Positions 5,010-62,934 of a stretch of DNA of 64,000 nt are shown piece by piece. The stretch is from an uncultured Gammaproteobacteria bacterium (GTDB lineage Bacteria > Patescibacteriota > Patescibacteriia > UBA11705 > JABHMO01). Position 1 is the first letter of the stretch. Every line of letters starts with the position of its first letter. The DNA lies in NCBI GenBank assembly GCA_964590105.1, contig CAZPYM010000003.1:8179-72178 (forward strand), read 5' to 3'. The position numbers and the translations under genes were made by a program. The notes beneath the pieces are model-generated. The model ran no database searches, was not told the origin of the DNA, and worked only from the letters and a program-made list of their open reading frames with translations.

Positions 5010-5052
5010 TAAAATTGTAATTTGAATATTGACAATTAATGGAGGAAGAAAG

Positions 5053-5889
5053 ATGAAGGAATTCGTACTGGATTCTGTGACCAAGATGGATGCGGTGTGC
5101 TGGCTGTTTGTCCTGGCCTTTTTCTGCGGCTGCGCTCTGCTGTGCGGCGGTGATGTCAGAATGGCGTTCATCGGAGCCTGGGGCGTGATCGGCACGATGT
5201 TTCTGATCAGCGTCTCAATCGAGATGATCATCGAAACGCTGAAGAACATGCGCGGACTTGGGACTATCGTAGGATTCATTACAAATGGTCCGGAAGCCCT
5301 GTGTCTGATCGTCGGCTTACTGGCTGGCGACGTGCTGTTCGCGGCTTCCACGCCGCTCGGCTCGAACTTCATGAATCCAGTTCTTTTGGTGATTGCCGCG
5401 ATAGTGACAAAGCGAGCGATCGCTACCTGGCGGACGAACAGAGCGTACAGTCTGACCTGCATTGGACTCACGGCTGCATTTGCCGCGGAGTTTTATTTCC
5501 TGCCGGAAAAGCTTTATTGGATTTGGTGGGGAGCGGCGGCGATCATGACGGCTGTCCTGTTTTTTTGGCGGCCGAAAGAGAAAGAGCCTGAGAGCAAGGA
5601 AGAAGCCGCTTTTTCCAAGCTGTGGCTGATTCCCGCAGTGGCAGTAATGCTTACGGCCGGATATTTCCTGGATCCGGTCGTGTCATTCGCTTCGGCGCAA
5701 TCACATGCGCCGAAAAATCTCATCGGGTTCTTGGTTTTGGCCACGCTTACCAGCTGGCCGGAATTCAAGTCCTGCCTGGTCCTTTTCCGAAGGGGCCGAG
5801 TGCTCTCCGCGATTCTCAATATCACGGTGAGCAACATTACCAACATCTGGCTGGCAATGCTCGGTGCCGGGATCTACCTCGTTTTCTAA
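5053..5889 (+). CDS. multi-pass membrane protein, Ca2+/cation antiporter (CaCA)-like; GC-rich gene
   Basis: Start taken at the ATG (5053) preceded by GGAGGAAGAAAG, rather than the track's 5029. Two alpha-repeat-like segments, 'GFITNGPEALCLIVGLLAG' and 'ATLTSWPEF', resemble the G(T/S)SxPE motifs of YrbG/CaCA exchangers. GC content is visibly about 55%, against about 38% in the surroundings. Confidence 0.55.
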   Translation: MKEFVLDSVTKMDAVCWLFVLAFFCGCALLCGGDVRMAFIGAWGVIGTMFLISVSIEMIIETLKNMRGLGTIVGFITNGPEALCLIVGLLAGDVLFAASTPLGSNFMNPVLLVIAAIVTKRAIATWRTNRAYSLTCIGLTAAFAAEFYFLPEKLYWIWWGAAAIMTAVLFFWRPKEKEPESKEEAAFSKLWLIPAVAVMLTAGYFLDPVVSFASAQSHAPKNLIGFLVLATLTSWPEFKSCLVLFRRGRVLSAILNITVSNITNIWLAMLGAGIYLVF

Positions 5890-6971: not shown

Positions 6972-7048
6972 GGTTGCTTAGCTCAGTTGGTTAGAGCGCT
7001 GCACTCACATTGCAGAGGTCCTGGGTTCAAATCCCAGAGCAACCACCA
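6972..7048 (+). tRNA. tRNA-Val (anticodon CAC)
   Basis: Acceptor ggttgct/agcaacc, D-arm gctcagttggttagagc, anticodon stem-loop ctgca-ctCACat-tgcag, T-arm ctggg-ttcaaat-cccag, CCA encoded. Confidence 0.9.
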
Positions 7049-7136
7049 AACTTTTAATCATTTAAACAAAAAACATTTATTTACTACTGGTTTTACTTAT
7101 TTTTTTTATAATTCATTATTAATTTATATTTATTTT

Positions 7137-10100
7137 ATGAAGGAAAAATCGCTGTTTGCGCAAAATGAAGAAAAAATAATTAATTATTGGGAAGAGAAAA
7201 ATATTTTCCAAAAAACTTTGGACAAAAAATCAGCCAAAGGCAATTTTATTTTTTTTGAAGGCCCGCCGACCGCCAATGGGAAACCTGGTATTCATCATAT
7301 TCTAGCGCGCGCTTTCAAAGATGTTATTCCGCGGTTCAAAACAATGCAAGGCTATCATGTTGAAAGAAAAGCCGGCTGGGATACGCACGGCCTGCCGGTT
7401 GAGCTTCAGGTTGAAAAAGAACTGAAAATTTCTGGTAAACCGGACATTGAAAAATATGGGATTGAAGAATTTAATACTAAATGCAAGGAAAGCGTTTGGA
7501 AATATAAAAAAGAATGGGAAGAAATGACTCGACGGATTGCTTTTTGGTTGGACATGGAAGATCCATATGTCACTTATTCCAATGATTATATTGAAACGCT
7601 GTGGTGGATTTTGAGTGAAGCAAATAAAAAGGGTTTGGTTTATAAAGGTTACAAAGTTGTTCCTCAATGTCCGCGTTGCGGCACGGCTCTTTCTTCGCAC
7701 GAAGTGGCACAAGGTTACAAAAACGTGGAGGAAAATTCAGTTTATCTTAAATTCAAAGTTAAAGGCGAACAAAATACTTATATTCTTTCGTGGACAACAA
7801 CGCCGTGGACATTGCCCGGAAATGTGGCGCTCGCAGTTGGAGAAAAAATTGATTATGTGAAAGTTGATTATCAGGGAGACAAATTAATTTTAGCCAAGGC
7901 TTTGATTAATGATGTTTTTGACGGGCCAGTAAAAGTTGTTGAAGAAATAAAAGGAGCAGATTTGGTTGGCTTGGAATATGAACCATTGTTCCCGGGCGCA
8001 TTAGATCCCGGCGACAAAAAAGCCTGGTACGTTGGCAAGGCGGATTTTGTTTCAATTACAGACGGCACGGGCGTGGTGCATACGGCGGTAATGTATGGTG
8101 AAGATGATTTTCAATTTGGTTTGGAAAATGATTTGCCGTTTGTTCATACTGTGGAAGAAGACGGGACGTTCAAGCCGAGTGTTGCAAAGTGGGCGGGAAA
8201 GTTTGTCAAAGATCCGGAAGTTGAAAAACAAATTGTTAATGATTTAAAAGAACGCGGTTTATTATTCAAGGAAAAAATATACGCGCATGATTATCCTTTT
8301 TGCTGGCGTTGCGACAGTCCGCTCCTTTATTACGCGAAAGATTCTTGGTTTATAAAAATGACAGCCTTGAAAAATGAGATGATTGATAATAATGAGCAAA
8401 CCAACTGGGTGCCTGAACATATTAAGCACGGTCGTTTTGGTGAATGGTTGGAAAATATCAAAGACTGGGCAATTTCGCGGCAGCGATATTGGGGTACGCC
8501 GATCCCGATCTGGGAATGCGAAGATTGCAAAGCGTTTGAAGTGATTGGTAGTTTTGAAGATTTGGGCCAAAAAGCGTGTAAAAAAATTACCAGCCTGCTT
8601 TTTGTGAGACATGCGGAGAGCGAGAAAAACGTTCTGGGTTTTAAATCCTGTAGCTTAGACAAGCATCCGCTCACGAAAAAGGGAATTAAACAGGCGGAGC
8701 AAATGTCCGGACAATTGAACAAAGTTGATTTAATTATTTCGTCGCCGGTTTTGCGGGCGAGGCAAACGGCGGAAATAATAAGTAAAAAACTAAAAGTGGA
8801 GGTTGTTTTTGACGAATTGATTTCTGAGCATAATGTCGGGAAGTGGAATGATATTTTGAAAGAGGATTTGGAGAAAGATAATAAAGAGTATGGCGAATAC
8901 AGCCAGTTGCAGGGAGAACGAAAATATGATTTCAAGTCCGGCATTGATGGAGAATCTCGCCGGGAAGTTGTGGCGCGGGCAGAAAAATTTATAAAGAACG
9001 TAGTATCAAAGTACGCTGGTAAAACGGTCCTGATTGTTGGGCACGGTTGTACCTACGGAGCCTTTTCCAAAGTAATAAATAATTGCAGTTATGAGGAGTT
9101 TTTCCAAAAAGAAAACATTAAATTCCAAAACGTAAAAAGTTTTCAATTGGATGAGGATGGAAAATTGTTTGATCCGCACAAGCCGTTCATTGATTCATAT
9201 GAGTACGGTTGCAAATGCGGTGGCCGGATGAAGCGCGTGCCGGATGTTTTTGATTGTTGGTTTGATTCCGGCGCCATGCCTTTTGCTCAGTATCATTATC
9301 CGTTTGAAAATAAAAAATTAATTGACGCGGGCGAGCAGTATCCAGCGGAATATATTTCCGAAGCAATTGATCAGACGCGGGGCTGGTTTTACACTTTGCT
9401 CGCGATTTCCACTTTGCTTGGCAAGGGCGCCTGTTATAAAAATGTGATTTGCCTGGGGCATATTCGCGATAAGGAAGGAAAGAAAATGAGTAAATCAAAA
9501 GGCAATGTTATTGATCCCATGACAATCATTGACCAGTATGGAGTTGATGCTTTGCGCATGCATTTGTATACGATCAATCAGCCGGGCGATCCAAAGAATT
9601 TTGATGAGAACTCGGTTAAAGATGTTTTGCGGAAAACTGTAATGCTTCTTGGAAACGTGGTTAACTTCTATATGATGTATGGGGAAGGTAAAAGTCCAAA
9701 GATAAAAGGTAAAAGTAATAATGTGCTGGATGTATGGATCGGAGCAAAATTAAATTTGTTGATTCAAGATGTGACAAAAGATTTGGAAGATTATCATATT
9801 TTCGAGGCGGCCAGAAATATTATTGAATTTATTGATGAGCTTTCGACCTGGTACGTGCGGCGTTCGCGCGAGCGATTTAAAGCTGAGGGCGAAGATAAGG
9901 AAAATGCGGTGGCAACTTTGAATTTAGTTTTGGGTGAACTGGTGAAATTAATCGCGCCGTTTATGCCATTTGCCGCGGAAAGTTTTTATCAGAAACTTGG
10001 CAATGAAAAAGAATCAGTCCATTTGGAAGACTGGCCGGTGTTTGATGAAAAATTAATTGATGAAACTGTTTTGAAAGACATGGAATTAGCTCGGCAAGTT

Positions 10101-10583
10101 GTTGAACTTGGATTGTCTGCGCGTGATGAAAAACAAATTAAGGTTCGACAGCCATTGCAAACACTTGAATACGATGGAAAGAAATTTGACAAGGATTTAG
10201 AACAAATAATTGCGGAAGAGCTGAATGTTAAAAACGTTGAAAATGTAAAAGTTGTACAAGGTGATAATTTGGTTATCAAAGAAGCGGGGGGCGTTGTAGT
10301 TGGATTAAACATTGAATTAACTGAAGAACTTAAACTTGAAGGACTGGTTCGTGAATTAACTCGTCAGATAAACAATCTTCGCAAAAATCAGGGATTAACC
10401 AGGGATGATCAGGTTAAATTGATTTATAGCACAGAGGGCGAGCAGTTGAAAAAACTTTTTGCCAATGCCGAATCAGTTGAAAGGTTGAAGCAGGCGACTT
10501 TGTTGTCCGGAGTTGAAGAGGGTAAGGGAGCGAATAAGGTTAAAGTGAATGATGAAGAGGTTGAAGTAGAACTATTGAAATAA
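7137..10583 (+). CDS. ileS: isoleucine--tRNA ligase (type 2 / eukaryote-like IleRS) with an inserted histidine-phosphatase (PGAM-like) domain
   Basis: The track ORF (6987..) begins inside the tRNA-Val; the ATG at 7137 (MKEKSLFAQNEEKIINYWEE) is the plausible start. Class I motifs are present: 'PTANGKPGIHH' (HIGH), 'WDTHGLP', 'WISRQRYWGTPIPIW', 'DCWFDSGAMPFAQ', 'GIDQTRGWFYT', 'KMSKSKGN'. Between 'IGSFEDL' and 'DPHKPFID...CKCGGRMKRVP' lies a roughly 190-aa insert containing 'LLFVRHAESEKN...PLTKKGIKQAEQ...SSPVLRARQTAEII...LIVGHGCTYGAF'. Confidence 0.9.
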   Translation: MKEKSLFAQNEEKIINYWEEKNIFQKTLDKKSAKGNFIFFEGPPTANGKPGIHHILARAFKDVIPRFKTMQGYHVERKAGWDTHGLPVELQVEKELKISGKPDIEKYGIEEFNTKCKESVWKYKKEWEEMTRRIAFWLDMEDPYVTYSNDYIETLWWILSEANKKGLVYKGYKVVPQCPRCGTALSSHEVAQGYKNVEENSVYLKFKVKGEQNTYILSWTTTPWTLPGNVALAVGEKIDYVKVDYQGDKLILAKALINDVFDGPVKVVEEIKGADLVGLEYEPLFPGALDPGDKKAWYVGKADFVSITDGTGVVHTAVMYGEDDFQFGLENDLPFVHTVEEDGTFKPSVAKWAGKFVKDPEVEKQIVNDLKERGLLFKEKIYAHDYPFCWRCDSPLLYYAKDSWFIKMTALKNEMIDNNEQTNWVPEHIKHGRFGEWLENIKDWAISRQRYWGTPIPIWECEDCKAFEVIGSFEDLGQKACKKITSLLFVRHAESEKNVLGFKSCSLDKHPLTKKGIKQAEQMSGQLNKVDLIISSPVLRARQTAEIISKKLKVEVVFDELISEHNVGKWNDILKEDLEKDNKEYGEYSQLQGERKYDFKSGIDGESRREVVARAEKFIKNVVSKYAGKTVLIVGHGCTYGAFSKVINNCSYEEFFQKENIKFQNVKSFQLDEDGKLFDPHKPFIDSYEYGCKCGGRMKRVPDVFDCWFDSGAMPFAQYHYPFENKKLIDAGEQYPAEYISEAIDQTRGWFYTLLAISTLLGKGACYKNVICLGHIRDKEGKKMSKSKGNVIDPMTIIDQYGVDALRMHLYTINQPGDPKNFDENSVKDVLRKTVMLLGNVVNFYMMYGEGKSPKIKGKSNNVLDVWIGAKLNLLIQDVTKDLEDYHIFEAARNIIEFIDELSTWYVRRSRERFKAEGEDKENAVATLNLVLGELVKLIAPFMPFAAESFYQKLGNEKESVHLEDWPVFDEKLIDETVLKDMELARQVVELGLSARDEKQIKVRQPLQTLEYDGKKFDKDLEQIIAEELNVKNVENVKVVQGDNLVIKEAGGVVVGLNIELTEELKLEGLVRELTRQINNLRKNQGLTRDDQVKLIYSTEGEQLKKLFANAESVERLKQATLLSGVEEGKGANKVKVNDEEVEVELLK

Positions 10584-12808: not shown

Positions 12809-12962
12809 TGTTTGTAAAAAATGAAGTTTGTGATAGTATTAAAGAAGATAAGGTGGACTTCTTGGCCGTGCGGCGGATCGCCGCAAAAGCGTTGTTGAAT
12901 TTATAGTTTTTAATTTTGGATTTTGTTTGGACTTTGGACTTTGAACTTTGAGTTTTAAAAAT

Positions 12963-17642: not shown

Positions 17643-19139
17643 TTATGCAATGCCCTCTACGTATTCGGGCTTGCATTCGTCAATTGCAATCGGTCGCAGA
17701 ATGGCCTGCGCCTGTTCTGCCACTATTTGCGGTGTCAGTGTTGTGCCGCCTTTGATATAGATGACAAACTTCGTCGGCTGAAATAGGAAAATGTCCGCTG
17801 TCGGATCCATTTCACTCAGCCGTTGATACAGATCATCCATGCCGTTCAAGCGGTTGTCCTGTACCCTTGTTACTCCGAGATTAAACGTGTTGTTTTTCAT
17901 GTCACGATAGGTCGCGACAACCACATCAATCTCATCTCGGTAGTACCGACGAAGTTGATACCGGATTACCTTGCTCGTAAGCGTTGTTTCCGGCAATAGC
18001 GCAAAGGTCAGGCCGCCTGCCCTGGTAATCTGCGCCGTTTCGAGCAGTTTTTGTACTTTTCCTCGAATTGCCTTTTTGTGATGCCAGGCCTTCAGCATGA
18101 AAAGCCCGATCATGGTGCGAACCAGTTCCTGGTAGCTGTCGTCCGGCAGTAACCGGAGGATTTCCCAGGGCCCCTTTCGGAGAACCACGGGGACCACCTT
18201 GTTGTCTCGGCCGGCATTGAAATCAGCCAGCTGGTCAGTCAGCATCTGTCGAAAGCTACCGGTTTCAGTTGTTTCGCCAAAGGGCGAACCCTCGGCCTGC
18301 ATCTGATTCACGAAAGCCACAAGTTCTTTCAGGACTGGGTCGTCTTGAAGTTTTTCGTTTCGTTCGAAAACTACCTGTGTGGCGCTCGGAAGCACTGAAG
18401 CGTCAAAGCGTTCACACTGCTTTTGTACTGCTTCTCTCTCATTTGGCTTATTGGGCCAATCGCCCCAGGTGAGCAAAGTGAGATAAGTTGCAGTGAGTTT
18501 GTCGAACGAATCAATCTGATCCTCGGAAAACGGAGGCAGCTCGGTGGTCCGGCGTTGATTCTTGTGCCAGGCCTCGAGCATGATCAGCCCGACTGCCAGC
18601 TTTTCCTCGTCGCGAACCTCATTGGTCTCCACTTCAAGGTTGGCCACAAGATCAATCAATTCCCATGGACCTTTTTGCTCGGTAATCAAAATCACCGGCT
18701 CCTCGCGGCCCTGGTTGTATTCTTTCAACTGTTCATTGAAAGCTGACCGTAGTTTACGCGCGTCAGCGTCCTCGGTGTTAACTGAGCTACCGCTGTCCAC
18801 CCGATCTGTCAGAGACACTATGTCCCCGACAAATGGATCGTGGCTCAGCTCAGGAAATCTTTCAACAACGGTTCCCGCCGCGCTTGGCCAGCGTCGACGA
18901 TTTTGATGATGATCAAATTCAAATGTCCCAAACCGTCCGCCGGTATCTAGATGGACAACCCTTGTGTTTCGGTTCAAATCTCTCTCATAAAAACGCTTCC
19001 CCGGAGGTACGAAAACGTACTCCAGTCGGTAGTCGCTAATATGAAAACTATTTGCCAAAAGCCACAAGTAAGTTGTCGCAATGGAATCAAAATCCGGCGA
19101 CTGGTGATTCACCAGTATATACCGAGTTTCGGGATTCAT
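17643..19139 (-). CDS. DHH-family phosphoesterase-like N-terminal domain protein with an internally duplicated C-terminal domain; GC-rich
   Basis: 'LVNHQSPDFDSIATTY' (DHH motif I/II-like) and 'FEFDHHQN' (DHH motif III) are present. Two paralogous internal segments ('...KGPWELIDL...LEAWHKNQRR' and '...KGPWEILRL...LKAWHHKKAIR') are seen. GC is visibly about 50%. Confidence 0.5.
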   Translation of the reverse strand: MNPETRYILVNHQSPDFDSIATTYLWLLANSFHISDYRLEYVFVPPGKRFYERDLNRNTRVVHLDTGGRFGTFEFDHHQNRRRWPSAAGTVVERFPELSHDPFVGDIVSLTDRVDSGSSVNTEDADARKLRSAFNEQLKEYNQGREEPVILITEQKGPWELIDLVANLEVETNEVRDEEKLAVGLIMLEAWHKNQRRTTELPPFSEDQIDSFDKLTATYLTLLTWGDWPNKPNEREAVQKQCERFDASVLPSATQVVFERNEKLQDDPVLKELVAFVNQMQAEGSPFGETTETGSFRQMLTDQLADFNAGRDNKVVPVVLRKGPWEILRLLPDDSYQELVRTMIGLFMLKAWHHKKAIRGKVQKLLETAQITRAGGLTFALLPETTLTSKVIRYQLRRYYRDEIDVVVATYRDMKNNTFNLGVTRVQDNRLNGMDDLYQRLSEMDPTADIFLFQPTKFVIYIKGGTTLTPQIVAEQAQAILRPIAIDECKPEYVEGIA

Positions 19140-19370: not shown

Positions 19371-20633
19371 ATGGAATTAGTCGCCCCAGCAGGAAATTTG
19401 AATAAACTTAAAACTGCAATCGCTTTTGGCGCCGACGCGGTTTATTGCGGTATTCCGGAGTTTTCTTTGCGAACCAGAATCAATCAATTTGACCTGAAAA
19501 TATTACGGCAAGGAATTGAATATGCGCACAAACATGGCAAAAAAGTATTTGTCACCGCAAATATTGTTGCGCACAATCGGCATTTGAGAGCGTTTGAAAA
19601 ATATTTTTCCGCGTTAAAAAAGATCAAACCGGATGCAATCATAGTTTCTGATCCGGGCATTTTTTTATTGGCAAAAAAAATCTGGCCCAAAGCAAAACTC
19701 CATCTTTCTACTCAGGCCAATTGCACTAATTGGCAAGCGGCGAAATTTTGGTATGATCTCGGAGTGTCAAGAATTATTCTGGGCCGAGAAGTTACTCTCA
19801 GAGAGATAAAAGAGATTCACAAAAAAGTTTCAAAAGTTGAGCTGGAATATTTTGTTCACGGCGCCATGTGCATGTCGTATTCAGGCCGTTGTTTGTTATC
19901 AAAATATTATACGGATCGAAGCGCTAATTTGGGCGATTGTACCCAGCCGTGTCGTTGGAAATATAATGTTTCTAACGTAGGGGCAGAACATTATTCTGCC
20001 CACCTTCAAGAAATTCAACGGCCGGAGGAGTTGTTAAAAATAGAAGAAGACCAGCACGGTTCATATATAATGAATTCAAAAGATTTGTGTTTGGTAGAAT
20101 ATTTAAAAGAATTAAAAAATGCCGGCATTAGCGCCTTCAAAATAGAGGGCCGAGCTAAAAGTTTTTACTATGTTGGCAACACAGTAAAGGTATATCGAGA
20201 AATAATGGATCATGGAACGCGAAATATTAAACAACCTTTTGAAGAATTGAAAAAAACGCAGAACCGAGGCTTTACCACCGGATTTTTATTTGGCCAAGAA
20301 AAATGTGAACAAAATATTACCAGCAGTCATGAAAATTGCGGCTGGGAATTCTGCGGGGTGGTTACTACTTACGAATCTGCTACGAATCTACAAAACGCTA
20401 CTGATAAAAATCAGATTGTAATAAAAGTGCATAATAAGATTCGGGTCGGGGATCAGGTGGAGTTTATTGTGCCGTTCGGGGAAAATTTTAAATACAAAAT
20501 AAAAAAAATGTTTGACGATAATATGCGGGAGATTGATAGCGCCCACGGCGGGCAGGGGCAGGTAATTTTTTTGCCGTTAAAAAAGAAATTGCCGGAATAC
20601 ACTTTGGTGCGTAGAAAGGTGGGGAAAGCATAG
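19371..20633 (+). CDS. peptidase U32 family protein (collagenase-like; tRNA 5-hydroxyuridine synthase TrhP-like)
   Basis: 'EYFVHGAMCMSYSGRCLLS' matches the U32 signature E-x-F-x2-G-[SA]-[LIVM]-C-x4-G-x-C-x-[LIVM]-S. Confidence 0.8.
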   Translation: MELVAPAGNLNKLKTAIAFGADAVYCGIPEFSLRTRINQFDLKILRQGIEYAHKHGKKVFVTANIVAHNRHLRAFEKYFSALKKIKPDAIIVSDPGIFLLAKKIWPKAKLHLSTQANCTNWQAAKFWYDLGVSRIILGREVTLREIKEIHKKVSKVELEYFVHGAMCMSYSGRCLLSKYYTDRSANLGDCTQPCRWKYNVSNVGAEHYSAHLQEIQRPEELLKIEEDQHGSYIMNSKDLCLVEYLKELKNAGISAFKIEGRAKSFYYVGNTVKVYREIMDHGTRNIKQPFEELKKTQNRGFTTGFLFGQEKCEQNITSSHENCGWEFCGVVTTYESATNLQNATDKNQIVIKVHNKIRVGDQVEFIVPFGENFKYKIKKMFDDNMREIDSAHGGQGQVIFLPLKKKLPEYTLVRRKVGKA

Positions 20634-20825
20634 TTTAATATAAAGTACGGCGGTCAATAGAAAGGATTAGGTTGGACTGGCGGTTATAAAGTTTGTTTTT
20701 TATGGCGATTGTTCGTGGAAAAAAAGTTAAATTTCAAGTTTGCGGCATAACTGTGGATGCCTTTGCGAAGTTTACTTTTTTTGAGATTTTTATTACAATA
20801 AAATTATAATTCATAAGTTTGATTT

Positions 20826-21191
20826 ATGGACAAAAGACAAGGTGGAGCAGGTTCTTTTGAAGTACCATCTGATGACGTGGTAGTTCATGATAGGGCTACA
20901 ACGAAAGATAGTTTTTACGTTGAAGTGGCGCCGGGAGAGTTGCGCGACGCCATTGATTTCTTGGGACATGAAGAGGCGGATCTTTTTTATGTCATGGAAG
21001 ACAAGCCAGGCATGACTTATGAGGTCAGGAAGGCTCAGGCTACAAAGCTGGCGGAAAAATTTCGTGATCCTAAGGTCCGGGAAAAAGTATTAGAATTAGC
21101 AGAAAAAAAGAGAAAATTGCAAACAGAAATTGAGGCAACGGAATTGGAATTTCATAAATTGGTTGGCAAAACAAATGCTTGGCTGGGCTAA
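20826..21191 (+). CDS. hypothetical protein
   Basis: 121-aa charged ORF; no motif. Confidence 0.45.
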   Translation: MDKRQGGAGSFEVPSDDVVVHDRATTKDSFYVEVAPGELRDAIDFLGHEEADLFYVMEDKPGMTYEVRKAQATKLAEKFRDPKVREKVLELAEKKRKLQTEIEATELEFHKLVGKTNAWLG

Positions 21192-21342
21192 TTAGTGGTT
21201 TGTAGATAAAAAAAAGATTCTTGGAGTCTTTTTTTATACATGCGAGTGGCTTTTCCTACGGCGCATTCAATAAAAGCAGCTCATCCCAGTGTGCCGTAAA
21301 AGCTGTCCGACTGAGTAAATGTCTGGCCGCTTTGGACATGTT

Positions 21343-21713
21343 TTGCCGTTAAAAAAGCAATTGTCGGAATATACTTTGGTGCGCCGGCTGATGTTTTGTT
21401 GAAAGCAAAACAGGGCGATGAAGTTGAGCTTTTTTCTCATCAGTACGTGCGCGAGGCCGTCATTCAGCTGTTTGATTTTTTCAAATATGAAGAACTGCAT
21501 TTGTTTGAACAGCTAATTTCTGTTTTCGGCATTGGCCCGAAAACTGCCATGGCGGTATTTGTTGAAGCTAAATTGGAAGATATTATTTTTGCCATTATGC
21601 ATGGCGATTTTTTTCTAATCGTGGGAATGAGGAGAACTAATGGTTACCTAGAAGGAGAAGATTTGGCGATTGACAACGCTTGCCCTCGTGGTATACTCAT
21701 GGTGGATATTTGA
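21343..21713 (+). pseudogene. chimeric remnant: 3' end of the U32 peptidase gene fused to an internal ruvA fragment
   Basis: 21343-21388 (ttttgccgttaaaaaagcaattgtcggaatatactttggtgcg) copies 20569-20612, the end of the U32 gene. It is joined directly to a roughly 210-nt stretch about 80% identical to ruvA 23206-23420. The 105-aa ORF 21396..21713 reads 'QGDEVELFSHQYVREAVIQLF..EQLISVFGIGPKTAMAVFVEAKLEDII', against RuvA 'QDDEVALFTHQHVREDAIQLF..EQLISVSGIGPKTALAVFAEAKLEDII', then diverges and terminates. Confidence 0.6.
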
Positions 21714-21726
21714 AAGGAGAAATGCT

Positions 21727-22056
21727 ATGGGTAAAATATTGGTAAAGCTTCGGCGATTTTTAAATCAGCCAGCCACTTGGAAATTAAAAGTGGTTGATTG
21801 CTCGGGTTTGGATTTGTCGTTGTTTTATGGGAGCCTCGGAAATTTTTTTGAGGAGGTGTTCTTCAATGCGGAGAAATACCCGCAGTATGTTTTGCCCCGA
21901 GAAGGCGTCGTTTATATCGGCGCGGACGATGGCAAAATGGCAAGCGGAGATTTGTCTTGCACTTGTCTTAATGTGTCCTTTGAAGAAAAGGAAATATCGT
22001 TGAATGAAATTCGTAATGCGTTAGACAAATTAGGAATCAAGACCGTTGTGGTGTAA
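21727..22056 (+). CDS. hypothetical protein
   Basis: The start is taken at the ATG (MGKILVKL) preceded by AAAGGAG, rather than the track's 21670. Confidence 0.4.
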   Translation: MGKILVKLRRFLNQPATWKLKVVDCSGLDLSLFYGSLGNFFEEVFFNAEKYPQYVLPREGVVYIGADDGKMASGDLSCTCLNVSFEEKEISLNEIRNALDKLGIKTVVV

Positions 22057-22121: not shown

Positions 22122-22796
22122 ATGAAGAAGTTTGCTCAGTATCTGTGTCTGGCGGGGATTCTTTTTGGATTTCTCTTCGTCGGTTCCTGCGCGTCGCAGG
22201 AAGACGAAGAAGATGCAACCGTTGTTCAGGAGGAGCTCAGTGTTCAGCTCACGATGGATAACGAACAGAACGTCGTCGCGGAGTTCAGCAACGGGCAGGC
22301 GGCTTACGGATGGGTCGAGTACGAGGAGATGGTGCAAAGCCTCTATGCAGAGGGCCAGTTTCTCACGAACGTGGCGATCCAGTATGAATCAAGCCCCGAA
22401 CAGACGTCTGTGGGCGACGGATTTGAAACGCAGCTGAATCCGCTTACCGTCAAGGTGCCGTTCACGTCATACTACATCACCATCACGAGCCCGCATAAGA
22501 ATTATGTTGGCGGGTGCATCGGTAAGACGGTAACGCATGTGAATTTCATCATCAACCAAAAAGGAGGAACGTTGTATTTGGATCTGCATCTCGCTGTTTG
22601 GATGAGCAATGGCAAGCCCTGCGTTGGTGTTTACATCACGCCTTCCAAGTGGTGCTCGAAAATCTGCGGGCCATCGATGGATCAGATCAGAAAGGCAATA
22701 AAATCAGCGTTGGTTGCCGCAGGTATCTCTGCCGCGGCGGCGGCTGTCATTGCCGAGGTCTTGGCACCCATCGGAGTGGCGGCGCTGGCGCTGTAA
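22122..22796 (+). CDS. putative lipoprotein, GC-rich
   Basis: Signal peptide with lipobox 'FLFVGSC', an Ala/Gly-rich hydrophobic C-terminus, and visibly high GC (about 55-60%). Confidence 0.5.
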   Translation: MKKFAQYLCLAGILFGFLFVGSCASQEDEEDATVVQEELSVQLTMDNEQNVVAEFSNGQAAYGWVEYEEMVQSLYAEGQFLTNVAIQYESSPEQTSVGDGFETQLNPLTVKVPFTSYYITITSPHKNYVGGCIGKTVTHVNFIINQKGGTLYLDLHLAVWMSNGKPCVGVYITPSKWCSKICGPSMDQIRKAIKSALVAAGISAAAAAVIAEVLAPIGVAALAL

Positions 22797-23119
22797 AGCG
22801 GCACGCGAAAAGAAATCAGGCCGTCTTAGGACATTGTTCTCAGGCGGCTTTTTGTTTTGACCGGGGAAGAACGGGGGAGAGCGAGGCAAAACGGGGCGAA
22901 ATAAGGCGCAATGAGGCAATGGGATCTATAAATGAAAAGGGAAAACAGGGGAATATAAAATTTTGATACGTTGTTTTGAAGGCGACTTTTCGTTTTTGTC
23001 TTGTGGCGCCTGTTGCCATATTGCCTTTTTTTGCCATTTAATCCTATTCCTCCCTGTGCGTGCGTGTTGAAAACGCCCGAACATTGTGTTACGATTACCA
23101 TTGTTAAACCAAGAAAAAT

Positions 23120-23695
23120 ATGATTGCATATATTAAAGGAAAAGTCAGGATGAAAACTGGAAATTTTTTGGTAATTGAAGCTGGTGATATCGGTTACAAG
23201 GTTTTTGCGCCGGCTGATGTTTTATTGAAGACAAAGCAGGACGATGAAGTGGCGCTTTTCACGCATCAGCATGTGCGCGAGGACGCGATACAGCTTTTTG
23301 GTTTTTTAAAATTTGAAGAATTGAATTTGTTTGAGCAGCTTATTTCCGTTTCAGGTATCGGGCCGAAAACCGCTTTGGCTGTTTTTGCGGAGGCCAAATT
23401 GGAGGATATTATTTCAGCCATTGTGAACGGCGATGCTTCAATTCTCAAGCGCGTTTCCGGCATTGGTTCGAAAACAGCAGAGCGCATTGTGCTCGAGCTC
23501 AAAAACAAAATCGCGGCCGGCGCGGCAATTGAAAATATTAAAACCGGACAAGAGCTCGGCGCTGACGCTGACGCGGTGGAGGCCCTAGTCAGTCTTGGGT
23601 ATTCAGTGAGTCAGTCGCGCGAAGCTTTGAAGCGAGTGTCGGTTGAAATAACCGACGCTGGAGAAAAGGTGCGAGAAGCATTGAAGAATATATGA
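23120..23695 (+). CDS. ruvA: Holliday junction branch migration complex subunit RuvA
   Basis: N-terminal OB domain, two HhH motifs ('SGIGPKTA', 'VSGIGSKTAERI') and a C-terminal RuvB-interaction domain. 191 aa. Confidence 0.85.
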   Translation: MIAYIKGKVRMKTGNFLVIEAGDIGYKVFAPADVLLKTKQDDEVALFTHQHVREDAIQLFGFLKFEELNLFEQLISVSGIGPKTALAVFAEAKLEDIISAIVNGDASILKRVSGIGSKTAERIVLELKNKIAAGAAIENIKTGQELGADADAVEALVSLGYSVSQSREALKRVSVEITDAGEKVREALKNI

Positions 23696-23696
23696 C

Positions 23697-23893
23697 AAAT
23701 ATTAAAACAAATATTGAACGAATATTAAAACAAATATTGAACGAATATTGAACGAATATTAAAACAAATATTGAACGAATATTAAAACAAATATTAAAAC
23801 AAATATTGAACGAATATTAAAACAAATATTAAAACAAATATTGAACGAATATTAAAATAAATATTGAAACAAATATTGAACAAATATTGTAGA
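23697..23893. repeat. tandem array of ~17 AATATT-core 11/12-nt units (caaatattgaac / gaatattaaaa)
   Basis: Seen directly, filling the whole ruvA-to-next-gene spacer up to the start codon at 23899. Confidence 0.85.
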
Positions 23894-23898
23894 AATAC

Positions 23899-24279
23899 AT
23901 GACGGATAAATATATTCCAATTGAAGAAGTTTTTGTTTATAAAATATCTAGGGAATTGTGTGATTTAGGCTGGGAAATTTATGAACCTTTGGATTGGCGT
24001 GATAAAAAGACCATGGGGGATCAATTTATCTCAGCAGTAGATTCAAATGCTGCCAATATTGTCGAAGGTTATGGTCGTTTTCACTATCTTGATAGAATAA
24101 AATTTTATTACAATGCTCGCGCTTCATTAATGGAGTCAAAGCATTGGTGTGAATTGCTATATGTGAGAGATAAGATTTTAGAAGAAAAATATAAGCAGTT
24201 TATAGAACGAGCAGGACAGGTGCATTATCAATTAAACAAATGGATAAAATTAACTTATTCTTCAAAGGATTCAAAGTAA
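23899..24279 (+). CDS. four-helix-bundle protein (TIGR02436 / 23S rRNA IVS protein / bAvd-like family)
   Basis: 'IVEGYGRFHYLDRIKFYYNARASLMESKHW' is the family signature (GYGRFhy..k..FyynARGSl.E). It is a paralog of the 63045..63464 ORF ('IAEGYGRFHYGDKNKFYYNARGSLLESRHW'). Confidence 0.7.
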   Translation: MTDKYIPIEEVFVYKISRELCDLGWEIYEPLDWRDKKTMGDQFISAVDSNAANIVEGYGRFHYLDRIKFYYNARASLMESKHWCELLYVRDKILEEKYKQFIERAGQVHYQLNKWIKLTYSSKDSK

Positions 24280-24282: not shown

Positions 24283-24396
24283 ACGAATATTAAAATAAAT
24301 ATTGTCGAATATTGAACTAATATTTAAATAATATTTGTGTAATATCTGCGTAATATTTGAGTAATATTAGTGTAATATTTGAGTAATATCTGATTT
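24283..24396. repeat. second tandem array of ~10 AATATT/AATATC-core 11-nt units
   Basis: gaatattaaaata aatattgtc gaatattgaac taatatttaaa taatatttgtg taatatctgcg taatatttgag taatattagtg taatatttgag taatatctg, ending at the ATG of the femAB-like gene. Confidence 0.8.
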
Positions 24397-24397: not shown

Positions 24398-25471
24398 ATG
24401 CAAATCCGCGAAGCCACAATTAACGATAAAGAAAGATGGAACGAATTCATCCGCGCCAATCAGGGCGGTTCTTTTTTGCAATCGTGGGAATGGGGGGAAT
24501 TAATGGCTACGCAGAAGGAGAAAATCTGGAGATTGATTGTATGTAATGCGAATGCCGTGAATCTTCATGCAAATGATGCGAATAGCGAATATGCAAATGA
24601 CTCAAATGAAGAATGGCTGGCGGTAATTTTTTTATTCAAGTCAAAATTAAAATTCGGCCGGTCAATATTGTACGCTCCGCGCGGACCGGTGGTTAATGAC
24701 AATTGTAAAATGGCGGATGACAAATTGATGGCCTTGATCATGGAAAAAATTGATTTGGTTGCAAAGCAGGAGCAGGTGATGAATTTCCAGCTGGACCCGT
24801 ATTCAAATGACGCGGACTGGGAAAGAATTTTTGATGAGCAGGGTTTTGAAAAATCAGAACGCGATATTCAGCCGCGCCACACCTTGCTCCTTGACGTGCG
24901 CGCCGGCGAAGAAGAACTGCTCGCGCAAATGAATCAGAAAACTCGGTACAATATCGGGTTGGCGCGCAAAAAAGGAGTTGAAATCGAAGTGGACAATGGC
25001 GCTTACAAAGGATTTTATGAATTGTTGAAAAAAACAGAAGTGCGGCAAAAAATAAAATTTTTTCAAGCTGATTATTTCAAAGAAATTTTGAAAGTCCCGT
25101 TTGTTAAGCTGTGTTTGGCAAAATATCAGGGAAAGGTTATTGCCGCGAATATAATGATTTTCTGGAATGACACCGCCACCTATTTATTCGGCGCCTCTGA
25201 TTATGAATATAGAAATGTAATGGCCCCGCACCTCTTGCAGTGGCAAGCGATCAAGGATGCCAAGAAAGAAGGCTTGTGGTTTTACGATTTTTGGGGCGCC
25301 GCGCCGCCGGAGTCAAAGGGCCGCGAACAAAATTGGGCTGGATTCACTAAATTCAAAATGGGATTTTCTCCGGAAGCTGAAATAACTGAATATATTGGCA
25401 CTTATGAAAAAAAATATCAGCCTGTTAAGCTGGGATTGTATCGGTTTCTTCAGTATCGTTTCAAAAAATAA
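24398..25471 (+). CDS. FemAB-family peptidoglycan bridge aminoacyltransferase (lipid II:amino acid transferase)
   Basis: 'ILYAPRGPVV', 'NQKTRYNIGLARKKGVEI' and 'APHLLQWQAIKDAKKEGLWFYDFWGA' are typical FemX/FemA motifs. Confidence 0.7.
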   Translation: MQIREATINDKERWNEFIRANQGGSFLQSWEWGELMATQKEKIWRLIVCNANAVNLHANDANSEYANDSNEEWLAVIFLFKSKLKFGRSILYAPRGPVVNDNCKMADDKLMALIMEKIDLVAKQEQVMNFQLDPYSNDADWERIFDEQGFEKSERDIQPRHTLLLDVRAGEEELLAQMNQKTRYNIGLARKKGVEIEVDNGAYKGFYELLKKTEVRQKIKFFQADYFKEILKVPFVKLCLAKYQGKVIAANIMIFWNDTATYLFGASDYEYRNVMAPHLLQWQAIKDAKKEGLWFYDFWGAAPPESKGREQNWAGFTKFKMGFSPEAEITEYIGTYEKKYQPVKLGLYRFLQYRFKK

Positions 25472-32698: not shown

Positions 32699-34003
32699 AT
32701 GAAACTCACCAAATCCCAAAATTTTTTTTGCGCCTGTTTAATCGTTATTCTGCTGGAAATATGCTGGGCGATTTTTTATTCGCCGACATTCAACGAGAAG
32801 CACATTTCTTTTTATAATGACACACAGCAAACTTTTCAGGCGGTTGTTTCCGAAGAGCCGGATGTGCGGCTGGATCATCAGAAGTTAACAGTCGAGCCGA
32901 CAGAATTGAAAGGAAAAGTTCTTTTGCGGACTCAGCTGTATCCGGAATATGAATATGGGGACTTATTGGAAGTAAATTGTAAACTGCAAACTCCGGAACC
33001 AATTGAAAATTTTAAATACGATAAATATTTGGCGCGAAGCGGGATCTATTCGGTTTGTTATTCGCCTCAAATAAAAGTAATTGAAAAAAATAAAGCCGGT
33101 CGTTTCGTTGCCGGAATCCTGCGATTCAAGAAAAACATTGAAAAGAAAATTAACCGTACTGTTGCCGAGCCGGAAGCCGCGCTGGTCGGCGGCATTTTGC
33201 TCGGCACGCGCCAGGGAATTCCGCAGAATTTGCTAAGCAAATTCAACACAACGGGAATCACTCATATTATCGCTATTTCCGGTTATAACATTACTATCAT
33301 TGTGGTGGTGCTGTTGAATTTTTTCATTTCCTTGCGAATTAATCGCAAGAAAGCGACCTGGGGAATCCTCGCGGCTTTATTTTTCTTTGTAATTTTAACC
33401 GGTGCCAGCGCCTCAGTTGTCCGTGCGGCAATAATGGGGAGTCTGGTTTTGCTGGCCGGGTATTTGGGACGCAAGGGCAATATTCGAAACGCTTTAATTC
33501 TTTCCGCGGCAATCATGGCCTTGTTTAATCCTAAAATTTTAATCTGGGACGCGGGCTTTCAGCTTTCGTTTTTGTCAACAATCGGCCTGGTGTATTTATC
33601 GCCAAAGCTTTTGAAGTATTTTAAATGGGCGCCGGAAAAATTTGGCTTGCGAGAAAATTTAACTTCAACTTTATCCGCTATTATTTTTACTCTGCCTTTA
33701 ATCCTGTTCCAGTTCGGCCGGTTGTCAATTGTAGCGCCGATTGTTAATTTGCTTGTTTTGCCAATAATCCCCATCGCCATGCTGGCCGGCTTTGTTCAGT
33801 TCATCTGCGCTTCAATTCATTTATTCCTTGGCCAGATCGTCGGTTGGTTTAGCTGGCTTTTGCTTGGGTTTGTTGTAAAGGTGGTTGAAATTTTTTCATC
33901 ATTTTCATGGGCGTCGATTGAAATAAAAATAAGCTGGTGGGTGATGGTTGCTTTGTATTTACTTTTATTTGCAGTTATAATAAGAAGAGACTTAAATAAA
34001 TGA
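32699..34003 (+). CDS. comEC: ComEC/Rec2 family competence membrane protein (DUF4131 + competence domain, no MBL domain)
   Basis: 'GITHIIAISGYNITIIV' and 'SASVVRAAIMGSLVLLAGYLGR' are typical of the ComEC competence domain, with multiple TM helices. Confidence 0.7.
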   Translation: MKLTKSQNFFCACLIVILLEICWAIFYSPTFNEKHISFYNDTQQTFQAVVSEEPDVRLDHQKLTVEPTELKGKVLLRTQLYPEYEYGDLLEVNCKLQTPEPIENFKYDKYLARSGIYSVCYSPQIKVIEKNKAGRFVAGILRFKKNIEKKINRTVAEPEAALVGGILLGTRQGIPQNLLSKFNTTGITHIIAISGYNITIIVVVLLNFFISLRINRKKATWGILAALFFFVILTGASASVVRAAIMGSLVLLAGYLGRKGNIRNALILSAAIMALFNPKILIWDAGFQLSFLSTIGLVYLSPKLLKYFKWAPEKFGLRENLTSTLSAIIFTLPLILFQFGRLSIVAPIVNLLVLPIIPIAMLAGFVQFICASIHLFLGQIVGWFSWLLLGFVVKVVEIFSSFSWASIEIKISWWVMVALYLLLFAVIIRRDLNK

Positions 34004-41925: not shown

Positions 41926-41954
41926 TTGACAGTCAAAGCCAGATATCATACGAT
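41926..41954 (+). promoter_or_regulatory. promoter TTGACA-N17-TACGAT
   Basis: ttgacagtcaaagccagatatcatacgat, upstream of the GC-rich MBL gene. Confidence 0.5.
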
Positions 41955-42027
41955 TAAATTGAGAGATGCTGGTCTCTCGCGCCCAATGCTCCTGTCCTTC
42001 GCCTGTAAGCCGCGAAAGGAGGGCAAG

Positions 42028-43017
42028 ATGAGGGTAACAACCTACGGTACCAGGGGATCAATCCCCATTGCGAACGCAAAAAGTGTCAGGTACGGCGGTA
42101 ACACCACCTGCTTGCGGGTGGAATCATGTTGTTTGCCGGATGGCCAGTGGTTGATCATTGATGCCGGTTCCGGCTATGTTCCGGCGTCGACAGATGCTTT
42201 GAAAAGTGGAGTGAAGCAGGTCAACCTGTTCTTCACCCACCATCACCACGATCACAATCAGGGACTGCCCCTGTCTCCTTTGACCTTTATCAAAGCCATT
42301 CCGGTCCATGTGTACGGGCCGGTGGATAATGGTTGGGGGCCGAAGGAAGTGATCGAATCTGTCATGCAAAAACCGGTTTTTCCGGTACCTTTCAAGATCG
42401 TGGCTTCGCACTTTCACTTCCACCGGTTGGAGTATCCGACAACCCTGGTGATCTTGATCCACCCGCGCGGCGGCTTCAAGACACTCGGCGTGGATGTGTT
42501 TGAGCGGCTCCTTGCCAAAGGAGAGCCCATTCCTTTCAGACAAAAGATGTCGTTCCCCGTGGCGGAATGTCTGGTGGTCTGGATGCATCGCACTGATCAT
42601 CCGGAAGCCACCATTTCGTACCGCTTTGAGGAGCGTCCGACAGGCAAAGTGTTTTGCCTGCTGACAGATCATGAAAACCAGGACGGAGTGCCGCAGAGCC
42701 TGCTCGCTCACCTGGCGAATGCGGATTTCCTGATTCAAGACGCCCAGTATGATCCGGACACGTACGCGAAAAGGACGGCCGGCTTTGGCCACGCCACTCC
42801 CACGTACGCAGTTCGCCTGGCTAATCAGGCTGGGGTTAAGAAGCTGGGATTCACCCACCACGATCCGGGCGCTGACGACGAGGCAGTGGACAGGATCGTG
42901 GAGATCGGACGAACTCTGGCCAAAGAGGCACGGGAAGACGACGGCAAAAAGAAGAGCAATCTTCTTCAGCCGGCTGACATCTTTGCCTGCGCCGATTATC
43001 AGGTTTACGAAGTCTAA
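42028..43017 (+). CDS. MBL-fold metallo-hydrolase (RNase Z/PhnP-like); GC-rich gene
   Basis: The start is taken at the ATG (MRVTTYGTRGS) preceded by AAAGGAGGG. 'THHHHDHNQGLP' is the HxHxDH motif. GC is visibly about 58%. The antisense ORF 42124..42861 is considered spurious. Confidence 0.6.
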   Translation: MRVTTYGTRGSIPIANAKSVRYGGNTTCLRVESCCLPDGQWLIIDAGSGYVPASTDALKSGVKQVNLFFTHHHHDHNQGLPLSPLTFIKAIPVHVYGPVDNGWGPKEVIESVMQKPVFPVPFKIVASHFHFHRLEYPTTLVILIHPRGGFKTLGVDVFERLLAKGEPIPFRQKMSFPVAECLVVWMHRTDHPEATISYRFEERPTGKVFCLLTDHENQDGVPQSLLAHLANADFLIQDAQYDPDTYAKRTAGFGHATPTYAVRLANQAGVKKLGFTHHDPGADDEAVDRIVEIGRTLAKEAREDDGKKKSNLLQPADIFACADYQVYEV

Positions 43018-48208: not shown

Positions 48209-48310
48209 TGTTTCTTTGCGATTTGTTTTAAGTCTATGTATTGAGTTTTTATTTTTTTTAATTTAAATTTGTTTTGGACTTTGAGTTTTTGACTTTGTGT
48301 TTTGAAATGT

Positions 48311-50243: not shown

Positions 50244-50840
50244 TTAGAAGCTGAACTTGACGCCGAAGAGGGAATTTTTCGGATCAAACTTAGCCTTTTC
50301 GCTGGCAAGTGGCGCCCAGCTGGCCCAGAGTGTGGCCTTGCCGACCGTAACTTCAGCCAGCGGACCTACTCCGGATGGACGTCGATCTTTGAGACCTATC
50401 GTCAGATAGGGAAGAACTTTGTACTTTAACGCTAGGTCGTACCAGAGAGCAGAGTCGTCACCGCTGTAGGCAACTTTTCCCGCTTCTACGATTCCGAGGA
50501 AGCTGACCTTGTCGTGGCCCAGCCAAAGCGAGTAGGCTGTTCGCAGGTCGAAACCTTCAACGCCCTGTTCCATGCCGACACTCAGTCCGAGCGTCATCCA
50601 GTCGGTGGGCGACCATTCCGGCCCGGCATAGGCTTCTGCCCAGCCGGCGGTAGTCAGGAAAAAGCTGCTGACTGACCAGTGCGAATCGAGCTTGTGCGTG
50701 AGGTAGCTGTCTACCGTTAGGCTTTTGAAAGCCTTGGGCGTCGCAGACTGCAACTCTCCGAAGCCTCTCGTCTGGGCGGTAGCGGTAAGGGATGCGCAAA
50801 GGTAAACAAGTACAGTCAGCGGCTGGAGGAACTTTCTCAT
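50244..50840 (-). CDS. outer-membrane beta-barrel-like protein (signal peptide, C-terminal ...GVKFSF); GC-rich
   Basis: The start is taken at the ATG (MRKFLQPLTVLVYLCASLTATAQT) preceded by AAGGGAG. The protein shows alternating hydrophobic beta-strand-like segments and ends in an aromatic residue (F), as OMPs do. GC is about 57%. A TTGACA-N17-TACAAT promoter lies on the minus strand at 50937-50965. Confidence 0.45.
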   Translation of the reverse strand: MRKFLQPLTVLVYLCASLTATAQTRGFGELQSATPKAFKSLTVDSYLTHKLDSHWSVSSFFLTTAGWAEAYAGPEWSPTDWMTLGLSVGMEQGVEGFDLRTAYSLWLGHDKVSFLGIVEAGKVAYSGDDSALWYDLALKYKVLPYLTIGLKDRRPSGVGPLAEVTVGKATLWASWAPLASEKAKFDPKNSLFGVKFSF

Positions 50841-51020
50841 AATTTTCTCCCTTTGCCCCTTGGGGCTTTGCAAAAGTTATTTAATGAACCGCACTTAAGA
50901 TGGATTGTCTCCTTGACTTTCTCATCTTGACATTGCATTGTATCACGAAATGGGCATTTTGTCAATGTCGGCTCAACAAATATTATTTCTCATTGTCTAA
51001 ATATAAATAAAAAAATGCTG

Positions 51021-61701: not shown

Positions 61702-62934
61702 TTATTCATAACGCAGAGCTGTAATCGGATCGAGCCTGGCCGCTTTTTTTGCGGGATAGATGCCGAAGATCAGGCCGATGGCAAAAGCAAAAACGCAGGA
61801 CAAAATGATTGAAAAAAGTGTAATTCTGAAATCCCAGTCGTAGTCGAGTTTATTAACGATTATTGAAATTAAATAGGAAATAAATATTCCGATCATGATT
61901 CCAATAATTGCGCCCAGAAAAGAAATTATAATTGTTTCAGTTAGAAATTGATTGGTTATCTGGTTCCCCGTGGCGCCGACTGCTTTGCGTAGACCGATTT
62001 CTTTAATTCTCTCTGTTACGGAGGCCAGCATAATATTCATGATGCCAATGCCGCCAACAATGAGCGAGATGAAAACAATGGCAATTAGAAAAAATTGTAA
62101 AGCATTAGTTACGGTGCCGAGCGCCTGCATAGCGTCGGCCGTACTACGAACAGTGAAGTCATCGTTTTCCGGATTTTCAATGTTGTGTTGATCGCGAAGC
62201 AGGAGTTTTATTTCTTCAACTGTCTGGTCCATGTTTTCTTCAGAGTCAACCCGAGCGCGGATAAATCCGAGGTGATCAATGCCGACAACTTTTTTTTGCG
62301 CGGTTGTGATTGGCAGGAAAACCATGTTGTCGATATTTTGAAAGCCGGCTGTGCCGACCGCTTCCAGCACGCCGATGACAACGAATTTATTGTTTTTTAT
62401 TTTAATTTTTTCGCCGATCGGATTTATTCCGGCAAATAACTCTTCGTTTACCTGTTGGCCGATTACTGCGCTGTCGCTAATATTGCGTTCGTCTTCTTCT
62501 GTGAAAAAACTGCCCTGAGCCGTTGTGATGTCGGCTAGTTTTGGGTAGCTGGCGGAAGTTCCGTAAATTGAAGCAGTGGTTTTTTGATTTGACCAGGAAA
62601 TGGTTTCCGTGGTGCTGACAAATGATGAGACCGCTTCTACGTGAGGAATTTTGGCGATTTCTTTTGTGTCATCGTCCGAAAGAGTGGTGATTACAATTCC
62701 CATAGCGGCCGCCGGCGGGCTGTCTTCGTCTCCGCCGCCGGGCATAATACTGATTACATTTGAGCCAATGCTTTTAAATTGATTGGTAATCAGACTTTGT
62801 GCTCCGGCAACAACAGACGTAATGATAATTATTGAAGAAATTCCGATAATAATTCCGAGCATAGTTAAAAAAGAACGCATTTTTTGAGCGCGTAGATTTT
62901 TTAGCGATTGTTTGATTGTCGTTTGGATAAACAT
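61702..62934 (-). CDS. ABC transporter permease, FtsX/MacB-like (paralog)
   Basis: Same architecture, with 'LRKAVGATGNQITNQFLTETIIIS'. Confidence 0.7.
   Translation of the reverse strand: MFIQTTIKQSLKNLRAQKMRSFLTMLGIIIGISSIIIITSVVAGAQSLITNQFKSIGSNVISIMPGGGDEDSPPAAAMGIVITTLSDDDTKEIAKIPHVEAVSSFVSTTETISWSNQKTTASIYGTSASYPKLADITTAQGSFFTEEDERNISDSAVIGQQVNEELFAGINPIGEKIKIKNNKFVVIGVLEAVGTAGFQNIDNMVFLPITTAQKKVVGIDHLGFIRARVDSEENMDQTVEEIKLLLRDQHNIENPENDDFTVRSTADAMQALGTVTNALQFFLIAIVFISLIVGGIGIMNIMLASVTERIKEIGLRKAVGATGNQITNQFLTETIIISFLGAIIGIMIGIFISYLISIIVNKLDYDWDFRITLFSIILSCVFAFAIGLIFGIYPAKKAARLDPITALRYE

Follow-up and report, generated by a model that had tools for sequence, protein, structure and literature searches.

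The orphaned gene ends found at Rhs, CDI and type VI effector loci have been attributed to homology-facilitated illegitimate recombination (PMC5361080), a mechanism defined in PMC3240628. The locus described here lies in a chromosome segment of ~41% GC from a member of the Patescibacteria (candidate phyla radiation), and is like these systems in two respects. Firstly, truncated and diverged copies lie beside an intact gene, with novel genes in between, and the joints seem to fall at short or no homology. Secondly, were the same mechanism to have operated here, incoming DNA anchored in a conserved neighbouring gene would have displaced an old gene end. A further point of reference, reportedly owed to Omelchenko et al. 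2003, is the in situ displacement of genes by xenologues in conserved operons.

In the 64-kb stretch of DNA that was analysed, hereafter the window, the interval between a U32-family gene and ruvA contains a 333-bp mosaic assembled from pieces of three genes. This is best explained, with a probability of roughly 65%, as a recombination scar: the defunct remnant of a second U32-ruvA-femAB block that was formerly functional.

Anatomy of the mosaic and its locus

The genes at the locus are arranged in the order U32, orf121, the mosaic, orf109, a lipoprotein gene, ruvA, a 23S_rRNA_IVP gene and a FemAB-like gene. The three resident counterparts of the mosaic are all intact and on the plus strand: the U32-family (TrhP-like) gene at 19371-20633 (Pfam Peptidase_U32, 2.9e-90, with NCBIfam support), ruvA at 23120-23695, with all three domains (Pfam RuvA_N, HHH_5 and RuvA_C) scoring above cut-off, and the FemAB-like gene at 24398-25471 (Pfam FemAB, 4.8e-39). 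The GC3 of resident ruvA and fem is typical for the window, making composition uninformative as to which copy is native.

The mosaic itself, at 21341-21673, was recovered by local alignment, a repeat finder and self-BLAST, and comprises three abutting plus-strand pieces in the order U32-ruvA-fem. The first (21341-21383) is identical to the U32 3' end at 20569-20611 in 40 of 43 nt (93%; within-window BLAST E-value 3.9e-9), the second (21380-21608) to codons 30-105 of ruvA at 23206-23434 in 184 of 229 nt (80%; 2e-57), and the third (21609-21673) to codons 25-46 of the FemAB-like gene at 24472-24536 in 54 of 65 nt (83%; 5.6e-12). They span 14, 76 and 21 codons of genes 420, 191 and 357 codons long, respectively. 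An earlier note on this DNA had described a chimeric copy of two genes; both repeats that it listed, the U32 3' end and a stretch ~80% identical to ruvA, are real, but the FemAB-like fragment had been missed, and the portion in which the copy was said to diverge is that third piece.

The U32 piece copies the last-but-seven codons of its gene, with LPLKKKLPEYTLV becoming LPLKKQLSEYTLV through one synonymous and two non-synonymous changes, and similarity to U32 breaks off sharply on its 5' side. It overlaps the ruvA piece by 4 nt, TGCG, at the joint between them; the ruvA/fem joint is associated only with an imperfect microhomology, GGCGRT, 2 nt away, and at the two outer ends of the mosaic no clear microhomology was seen. 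The fem piece covers the FLQSWEWGE motif of the FemAB-like gene, which relatives conserve. No other diverged gene-fragment repeats, or further remnants, were detected by sensitive self-BLAST in the inserted block or the 64-kb window.

On either side of the mosaic are units of orphan genes, which occupy a former U32-ruvA spacer of ~100 nt; orphan reading frames and a GC-rich lipoprotein gene had already been noted between U32 and ruvA, and are indeed present. The left unit is orf121 (20826-21191, plus strand), with a promoter-like site at 20781-20810 and a terminator-like A-tract/hairpin/T-tract at ~21207-21236 (z -3.6). It has no Pfam, PHROG or NCBIfam match, no homologue but itself among 1.84 billion representatives, and no counterpart in the relatives' loci or viral contigs. 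An integrative element, with the 43-nt direct repeat flanking orf121 as an att duplication, was considered and rejected: only orf121 lies between the repeats, it has no family match, and no recombinase was found among the neighbours scanned.

The right unit begins with orf109 (21727-22056, plus strand), which has an AAAGGAG ribosome-binding site. A near-consensus, extended -10 promoter-like site, TTGACA-16-TG-TATACT, lies 30 nt upstream of orf109 on the plus strand at 21670-21697, matching 11 of 12 consensus positions, although this is a consensus match only. Its -35 hexamer, TTGACA, straddles the right end of the mosaic, and this end may now be part of a predicted promoter. No Pfam, PHROG or NCBIfam match was found for orf109, which is absent from viral contigs and relatives' loci. 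The second gene of the unit (22122-22796, plus strand) encodes a predicted 224-aa lipoprotein with the lipobox LFVGSC; it is a compositional outlier (GC3 0.66), followed by a terminator-like hairpin at ~22818-22858 (z -2.9), and its only homologue among 5.8 billion proteins is itself, with none in the relatives' loci or viral contigs. Searches for a phage origin of the inserted genes gave no PHROG matches, nor any viral-contig match to orf121, orf109, the lipoprotein or the junction sequence, and no known RNA family was found in the 19-25 kb region at E<=1. The lipoprotein gene is one of five mutually unrelated single genes of 50-56% GC in the 41% GC background (5029-5889, 17643-19139, 22122-22796, 41926-43017 and 50244-50873); as relatives share the 498-aa gene at 17643-19139, high GC alone is no mark of foreign DNA here.

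The ancestral organisation of this region can be read from relatives. The distance from U32 to the start of ruvA is 0-260 nt at 16 loci of related Patescibacteria in GTDB, and a FemAB gene follows ruvA in seven loci: six of these 16, and L014, in which ruvA lies ~880 nt 3' of U32. The contigs of the closest RuvA homologues that reach upstream of ruvA (L178, L179, L180 and L181, with RuvA 66-68% identical) have a contiguous U32-ruvA(-fem-glycosyltransferase) arrangement, and share wider synteny with the window in DUF218, NIF3, MFS and the 498-aa gene. The former adjacency of U32 and ruvA proposed in the earlier note is therefore well founded. Its idea that the mosaic is a junction left by splitting that adjacency is not, as the resident U32 3' end, ruvA and the sequence at 23065-23119 are all intact. 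These 55 nt 5' of ruvA, on the plus strand, are native and conserved, matching the corresponding sequences in L178, L182 and L183 at 76-87% identity; hence the lineage-specific block is bounded by the U32 stop codon and ~23064. Judged from this arrangement, the mosaic is a separate, internally deleted second copy of U32-ruvA-fem, and a miniature, in ancestral gene order, of the block housing it.

Two of these contigs, L180 and L181 (ENA ERZ27248922 and ERZ27248885), stem from samples that also contain the window's population, and represent a related species with RuvA 66% identical and an uninterrupted U32-ruvA-fem. Among the RuvA homologues, the nearest were 66-72% identical, with 72% the maximum in the protein search; U32 identity reached at most 54% in the GTDB scan, and RuvA identity at most 52% in the metagenome scan. 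These GTDB, metagenome and protein searches returned no donor or closer relative, and were enough for ancestral synteny only; among 35 related genomes, no similar relic was present at the same locus. The U32-ruvA spacers of L006 (11254-11332) and L019 (11265-11472) contain only small dispersed repeats of 75-208 nt, which recur elsewhere in the same contigs, and this spacer may be a recurrent landing site.

Further features of the window deserve description in their own right. Between ruvA and the FemAB-like gene is an inserted 23S_rRNA_IVP/four-helix-bundle gene (23899-24279), which the relatives do not have; no gene of the window has a GC3 below its 0.26, tandem arrays of 11-12-nt repeats flank it on both sides (23694-23900 and 24286-24392), and a paralogue of 64% nucleotide identity lies on the minus strand at 63045-63494. 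Since this gene is Avd-like, a diversity-generating retroelement TR/VR pair was considered, and was rejected as the mismatches are not confined to adenines (A 11, C 12, G 12 and T 10 in the resident; T 17, A 12, C 11 and G 5 in the fragment); no reverse transcriptase was found among the neighbours scanned. Elsewhere, a 1198-aa class I aminoacyl-tRNA synthetase ORF (6987-10583) has a His_Phos_1 domain (residues 537-707) inside its catalytic domain, and its nominal TTG start is overlapped by a tRNA-Val gene (6972-7048). A dispersed repeat of ~55-60 nt occurs in three copies of ~77% identity, one inverted (1120-1179, 12907-12960 and 48248-48307), and adjacent MacB/FtsX-type permease paralogues (60363-61100 and 61702-62439) are 59% identical over 739 nt.

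Substitution history and origin of the second copy

Across the 76 codons of the ruvA piece, 28 of the 45 differences from the resident gene are at third codon positions. Nei-Gojobori counts (Sd 27, Nd 18; pS 0.55, pN 0.10) correspond to a pN/pS of 0.18, and a dN/dS of 0.11 at a dS of ~1. The Ka/Ks comparison of fragment and ruvA suggested in the earlier note therefore does reveal purifying selection, acting for most of the divergence. Polarisation of the changes with four outgroups placed 15 on the resident branch (five at first and second positions, ten at third) and 23 on that of the fragment (11 and 12), with the assignment of seven being ambiguous. Hence the split is old, and both copies were once constrained. 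Ancestral residues persist in the fragment at four positions altered in the resident (A38, G41, E45 and Y65), and first- and second-position changes are more numerous on the fragment branch than on that of the resident (11 against 5); arithmetic on these polarised counts leaves the fragment with ~10 extra unconstrained changes, or ~4-5%.

The fem piece has a comparable history. Its 11 changes, counted in the fem frame, are six synonymous and five non-synonymous or stop changes, and it keeps ancestral synonymous states where the resident has changed. As it evolved in the fem frame, its frame-breaking fusion to ruvA must have been late. Taken together, the substitution patterns show that the copy diverged under selection and was then relaxed, its ruvA and fem having still been functional while most of the divergence accrued. 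The resident is the nearest RuvA to the fragment, sharing 59 of 76 residues, with the next best of 7,220 homologues sharing 52, and the two are sisters relative to all sampled homologues.

The U32 piece stands apart, being much less diverged (3/43, 7%) than the ruvA and fem pieces. A single synonymous change is present in it, when ~5 would be expected at the ruvA rate (P ~0.005; Fisher P 0.05 over all sites), and its divergence fits the late “neutral” phase alone; relatives show no nucleotide-level conservation of the U32 3' end. This suggests that the resident U32 was the template of the U32 piece, or that the two have a recent common ancestor, dating to roughly when the second copy died. Such asymmetry is not predicted by the import of a single block, and hence either two events or a native mosaic are needed.

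Under the reading that we favour, the second copy would have evolved apart from the resident genes, most likely in a related Patescibacteria lineage, until recombination with imported DNA brought the two copies into one genome. Redundancy would then have allowed the loss of function and the shrinkage of one copy through two deletions, the first joining the U32 tail to ruvA codon 30 at the TGCG microhomology, and the second joining ruvA codon 105 to fem codon 25, with ~4-7% of neutral, AT-biased decay following afterwards. The substitutions from resident to fragment have the corresponding GC-to-AT bias, with 18 of 45 being C>T or G>A. We infer a xenologous (foreign) origin, in preference to a long-lived internal duplicate, solely from the substitution pattern, because the homologues sampled include no donor lineage and the closest other RuvA is 72% identical. 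By analogy with the effector loci, a homology-anchored illegitimate insertion that displaced old gene ends would fit as the recombination route. Genes for ComEC (32699-34003) and a PilB-like ATPase (55852-57531) lie in the window, making DNA uptake plausible.

The polarity of this exchange could run in either direction. In one scenario, the mosaic would be the native sequence that once followed on from U32; on the left, a fresh U32 end and orf121 would have arrived by homology-anchored insertion, and a second insertion would have brought orf109-lipoprotein-ruvA-(IVP)-fem on the right, leaving the old ruvA and fem start orphaned in the middle. The intact ruvA-fem would then be the imported copy and the mosaic the displaced native, such that xenologous displacement in situ had been caught midway; we regard this as a tentative proposal, less likely than not. 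The opposite polarity, with the mosaic as the imported copy, is possible.

Rather than being imported, the second copy might have arisen by an old duplication within the lineage, with a full second ruvA-fem remaining functional for a long time before one copy recently collapsed. The substitution evidence is the same as that for the recombination scar, and an internal duplicate would account for the fragment being sister to the resident RuvA among the sampled homologues. However, no second copy or remnant exists at this locus in the related loci examined, the long retention of a redundant ruvA and fem would be unexpected in a small, streamlined genome, and the younger U32 piece would be left unexplained. 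Hence we consider this origin improbable, if worth keeping in mind.

A duplication of the resident U32-ruvA in place, with the extra copy decaying neutrally as a junction pseudogene ever since, is the history closest to that originally put forward, and now appears very unlikely. It would explain why the resident genes are the closest matches of the pieces, why the U32 piece has diverged by only 7%, and why the fem piece has acquired stops. It also predicts that non-synonymous divergence should be at least half of the synonymous; the observed pN of 0.10 and pS of 0.55 give a ratio of 0.18, against the ~0.5 or more expected of an in-place segmental duplicate. Simulations in which the resident was copied, with the copy drifting neutrally under the observed mutation spectrum and the resident evolving at an omega of 0.05-0.2, were compared with the data using pairs that had 42-48 differences (1,600-2,300 runs). 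The mean Nd was ~29, and none of the 1,600-2,300 runs gave an Nd of 18 or less (P<0.001), while at least 28 third-position changes were seen in ~0.1% (P ~0.001). The resident branch, furthermore, holds 15 of the 38 polarised changes, compared to ~21% expected under in-place duplication and decay (P 0.009). Finally, a simple tandem duplication would generate a fem-to-U32 junction, rather than a U32-ruvA-fem series flanked by unrelated DNA.

The 105-aa reading frame and the remaining alternatives

Gene finders call a 105-aa ORF with a TTG start across the mosaic, at 21396-21713 on the plus strand. This ORF exists as originally described, but it is not an in-frame join of U32 to ruvA. Read in the U32 frame, the mosaic gives HVLPLKKQLSEYTLVRRLMFC and then a stop codon at 21400-21402, such that the U32 frame ends ...LPLKKQLSEYTLVRRLMFC*, and the ORF is one base off; it follows the ruvA frame, and its TTG at 21396 falls 3' of the U32/ruvA joint. 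As the U32 and ruvA pieces are out of frame with one another, the ORF has no U32 peptide, and no U32-RuvA fusion protein is encoded. It is instead made of 71 codons in the ruvA frame, continued by frame-shifted fem and then unique sequence, these two making up its last 34 residues. Given the late, frame-breaking fusion to fem, the ORF is young in its present form.

The alternative raised in the earlier note was that of a retained, truncated RuvA-like protein. In such a case the ORF would be expressed, as a helix-hairpin-helix protein under selection of its own that might, for instance, interfere with RuvAB. The low overall dN/dS could be cited in its favour, as could the calls by gene finders, the open frame, with its possible residual constraint, and the first helix-hairpin-helix GIGPK motif (the GIGPKTA hairpin), which is kept within a segment homologous to RuvA residues 30-105. 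Yet the claim that the ORF keeps the domain I/HhH core of this Holliday-junction DNA-binding subunit does not withstand comparison with the family models, as neither domain is complete. Both Pfam matches are partial and below cut-off (RuvA_N 17.4 against 23.6, HHH_5 17.8 against 27), with none to RuvA_C; the TIGR00084 score of 64.6 is likewise short of its cut-off of 85, with the match confined to positions 41-109 of the 202 in the profile. There is thus no full-length, three-domain match. Missing are residues 1-29 at the N-terminus, half of domain II, with its second hairpin, and all of domain III.

The core that remains is altered. The fragment replaces G61, a glycine in 92 of 92 outgroups, through G61D, as well as D55 (82 of 92; D55A), T48 (79 of 92; T48S) and S78 (77 of 92; S78F), and the core motifs REDA...L[FY]GF and S-G-[IV]-G-P-K are not fully conserved. 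The tail of frame-shifted fem and unique sequence also argues for a young ORF, as opposed to a retained protein. Nor does its setting favour expression: no purine-rich (ribosome-binding) motif was seen upstream of the TTG at 21396, the start lies ~100 nt 3' of the terminator-like hairpin, and no promoter-like site was found between that hairpin and the ORF. No homologue was found besides the ORF itself; the second member of its cluster (P0125) is this ORF again, its TTG start being rendered as L. The ruvA frame is open for 126 codons across the region; in simulations, it stayed open in ~20% of runs even under heavier decay. We judge the ORF to be, in all likelihood, an accident of the ruvA frame staying open, and its retention as a truncated RuvA to be quite unlikely. 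A variant, with the ORF expressed as a mini-protein that retains one RuvA helix-hairpin-helix, was remodelled recently, came with the orphan-gene cassette, and interferes with or modulates RuvAB-dependent recombination, is more doubtful still.

The best reading of the mosaic is accordingly that of a probable non-functional sequence, and the description of it as a pseudogene holds. It combines homology to functional genes with truncation, and disabling changes with relaxed constraint: the pieces are truncated, the U32/ruvA joint is out of frame, invariant residues have been lost, and the third piece, in the fem frame, reads FF*SWE*GELMVT*KEKIWRL, with three stops in the region of the FLQSWEWGE motif. 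In practice, the 105-aa “hypothetical protein” listed in several public assemblies is to be regarded as a fragment of a pseudogene, rather than as a RuvA paralogue.

Two mechanistic alternatives carry little weight. One-step “filler” DNA, for which the resident genes would have served as successive templates in microhomology-mediated replication repair (serial template switching) during insertion of the orphan genes, would account for pieces that are short, collinear and derived from within 3 kb, as well as for the one joint with 4-nt microhomology; it is hard to credit, because with resident templates it makes the same predictions as in-place duplication, which the substitution pattern rejects, and such a mechanism survives solely with foreign template DNA. 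An assembly or binning artefact, through a collapsed repeat or a strain chimera, is suggested by the many contigs of this population that break near the region, but can be set aside, since eight independently assembled contigs, from eight samples and three sources (ENA ERZ27248920, ERZ27248895, ERZ27248922, ERZ27248953, ERZ27248939 and ERZ27248885; JGI 3300028168; Logan SRR8437218), span the whole mosaic at 100% identity, and represent one clonal population without polymorphism.

Comparison with known systems

The mosaic is a natural record of a conserved housekeeping block being opened in a tiny, streamlined Patescibacteria genome. The events recorded would be the entry of a diverged second copy of the block, and of several orphan genes, into the U32-ruvA spacer, and the collapse of the redundant copy by deletions. 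Should the recombination reading be true, the locus would provide sequence-level evidence of core-gene exchange between related uncultivated lineages, and would exemplify illegitimate joints in a group in which gene flow is hard to study.

The likeness to Rhs, CDI and type VI effector loci has three limits. Firstly, the genes here are housekeeping genes (U32, ruvA and femAB), rather than toxin-immunity modules. Secondly, the relic is composed of fragments of three genes with internal deletions. Thirdly, there is no benefit here comparable to that of keeping old immunity genes. With xenologous displacement in situ, the locus shares a conserved block with a diverged homologue, seemingly from another lineage, at the same position, and the two copies side by side, before one is lost, are the intermediate that such a process would be expected to pass through. 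It differs in that the divergence is shallow, within the same family-level clade and at an estimated ~87% protein identity before decay, and in that the displacement itself is hypothetical.

In common with ordinary bacterial pseudogenes, the mosaic has truncation, stop codons, the loss of invariant residues, AT-biased substitutions and deletions. Unlike them, it gathered most of its divergence from the functional copy under purifying selection, and it forms a collinear, three-gene miniature inside its own locus. The mosaic is ordinary in kind, but unusually legible.
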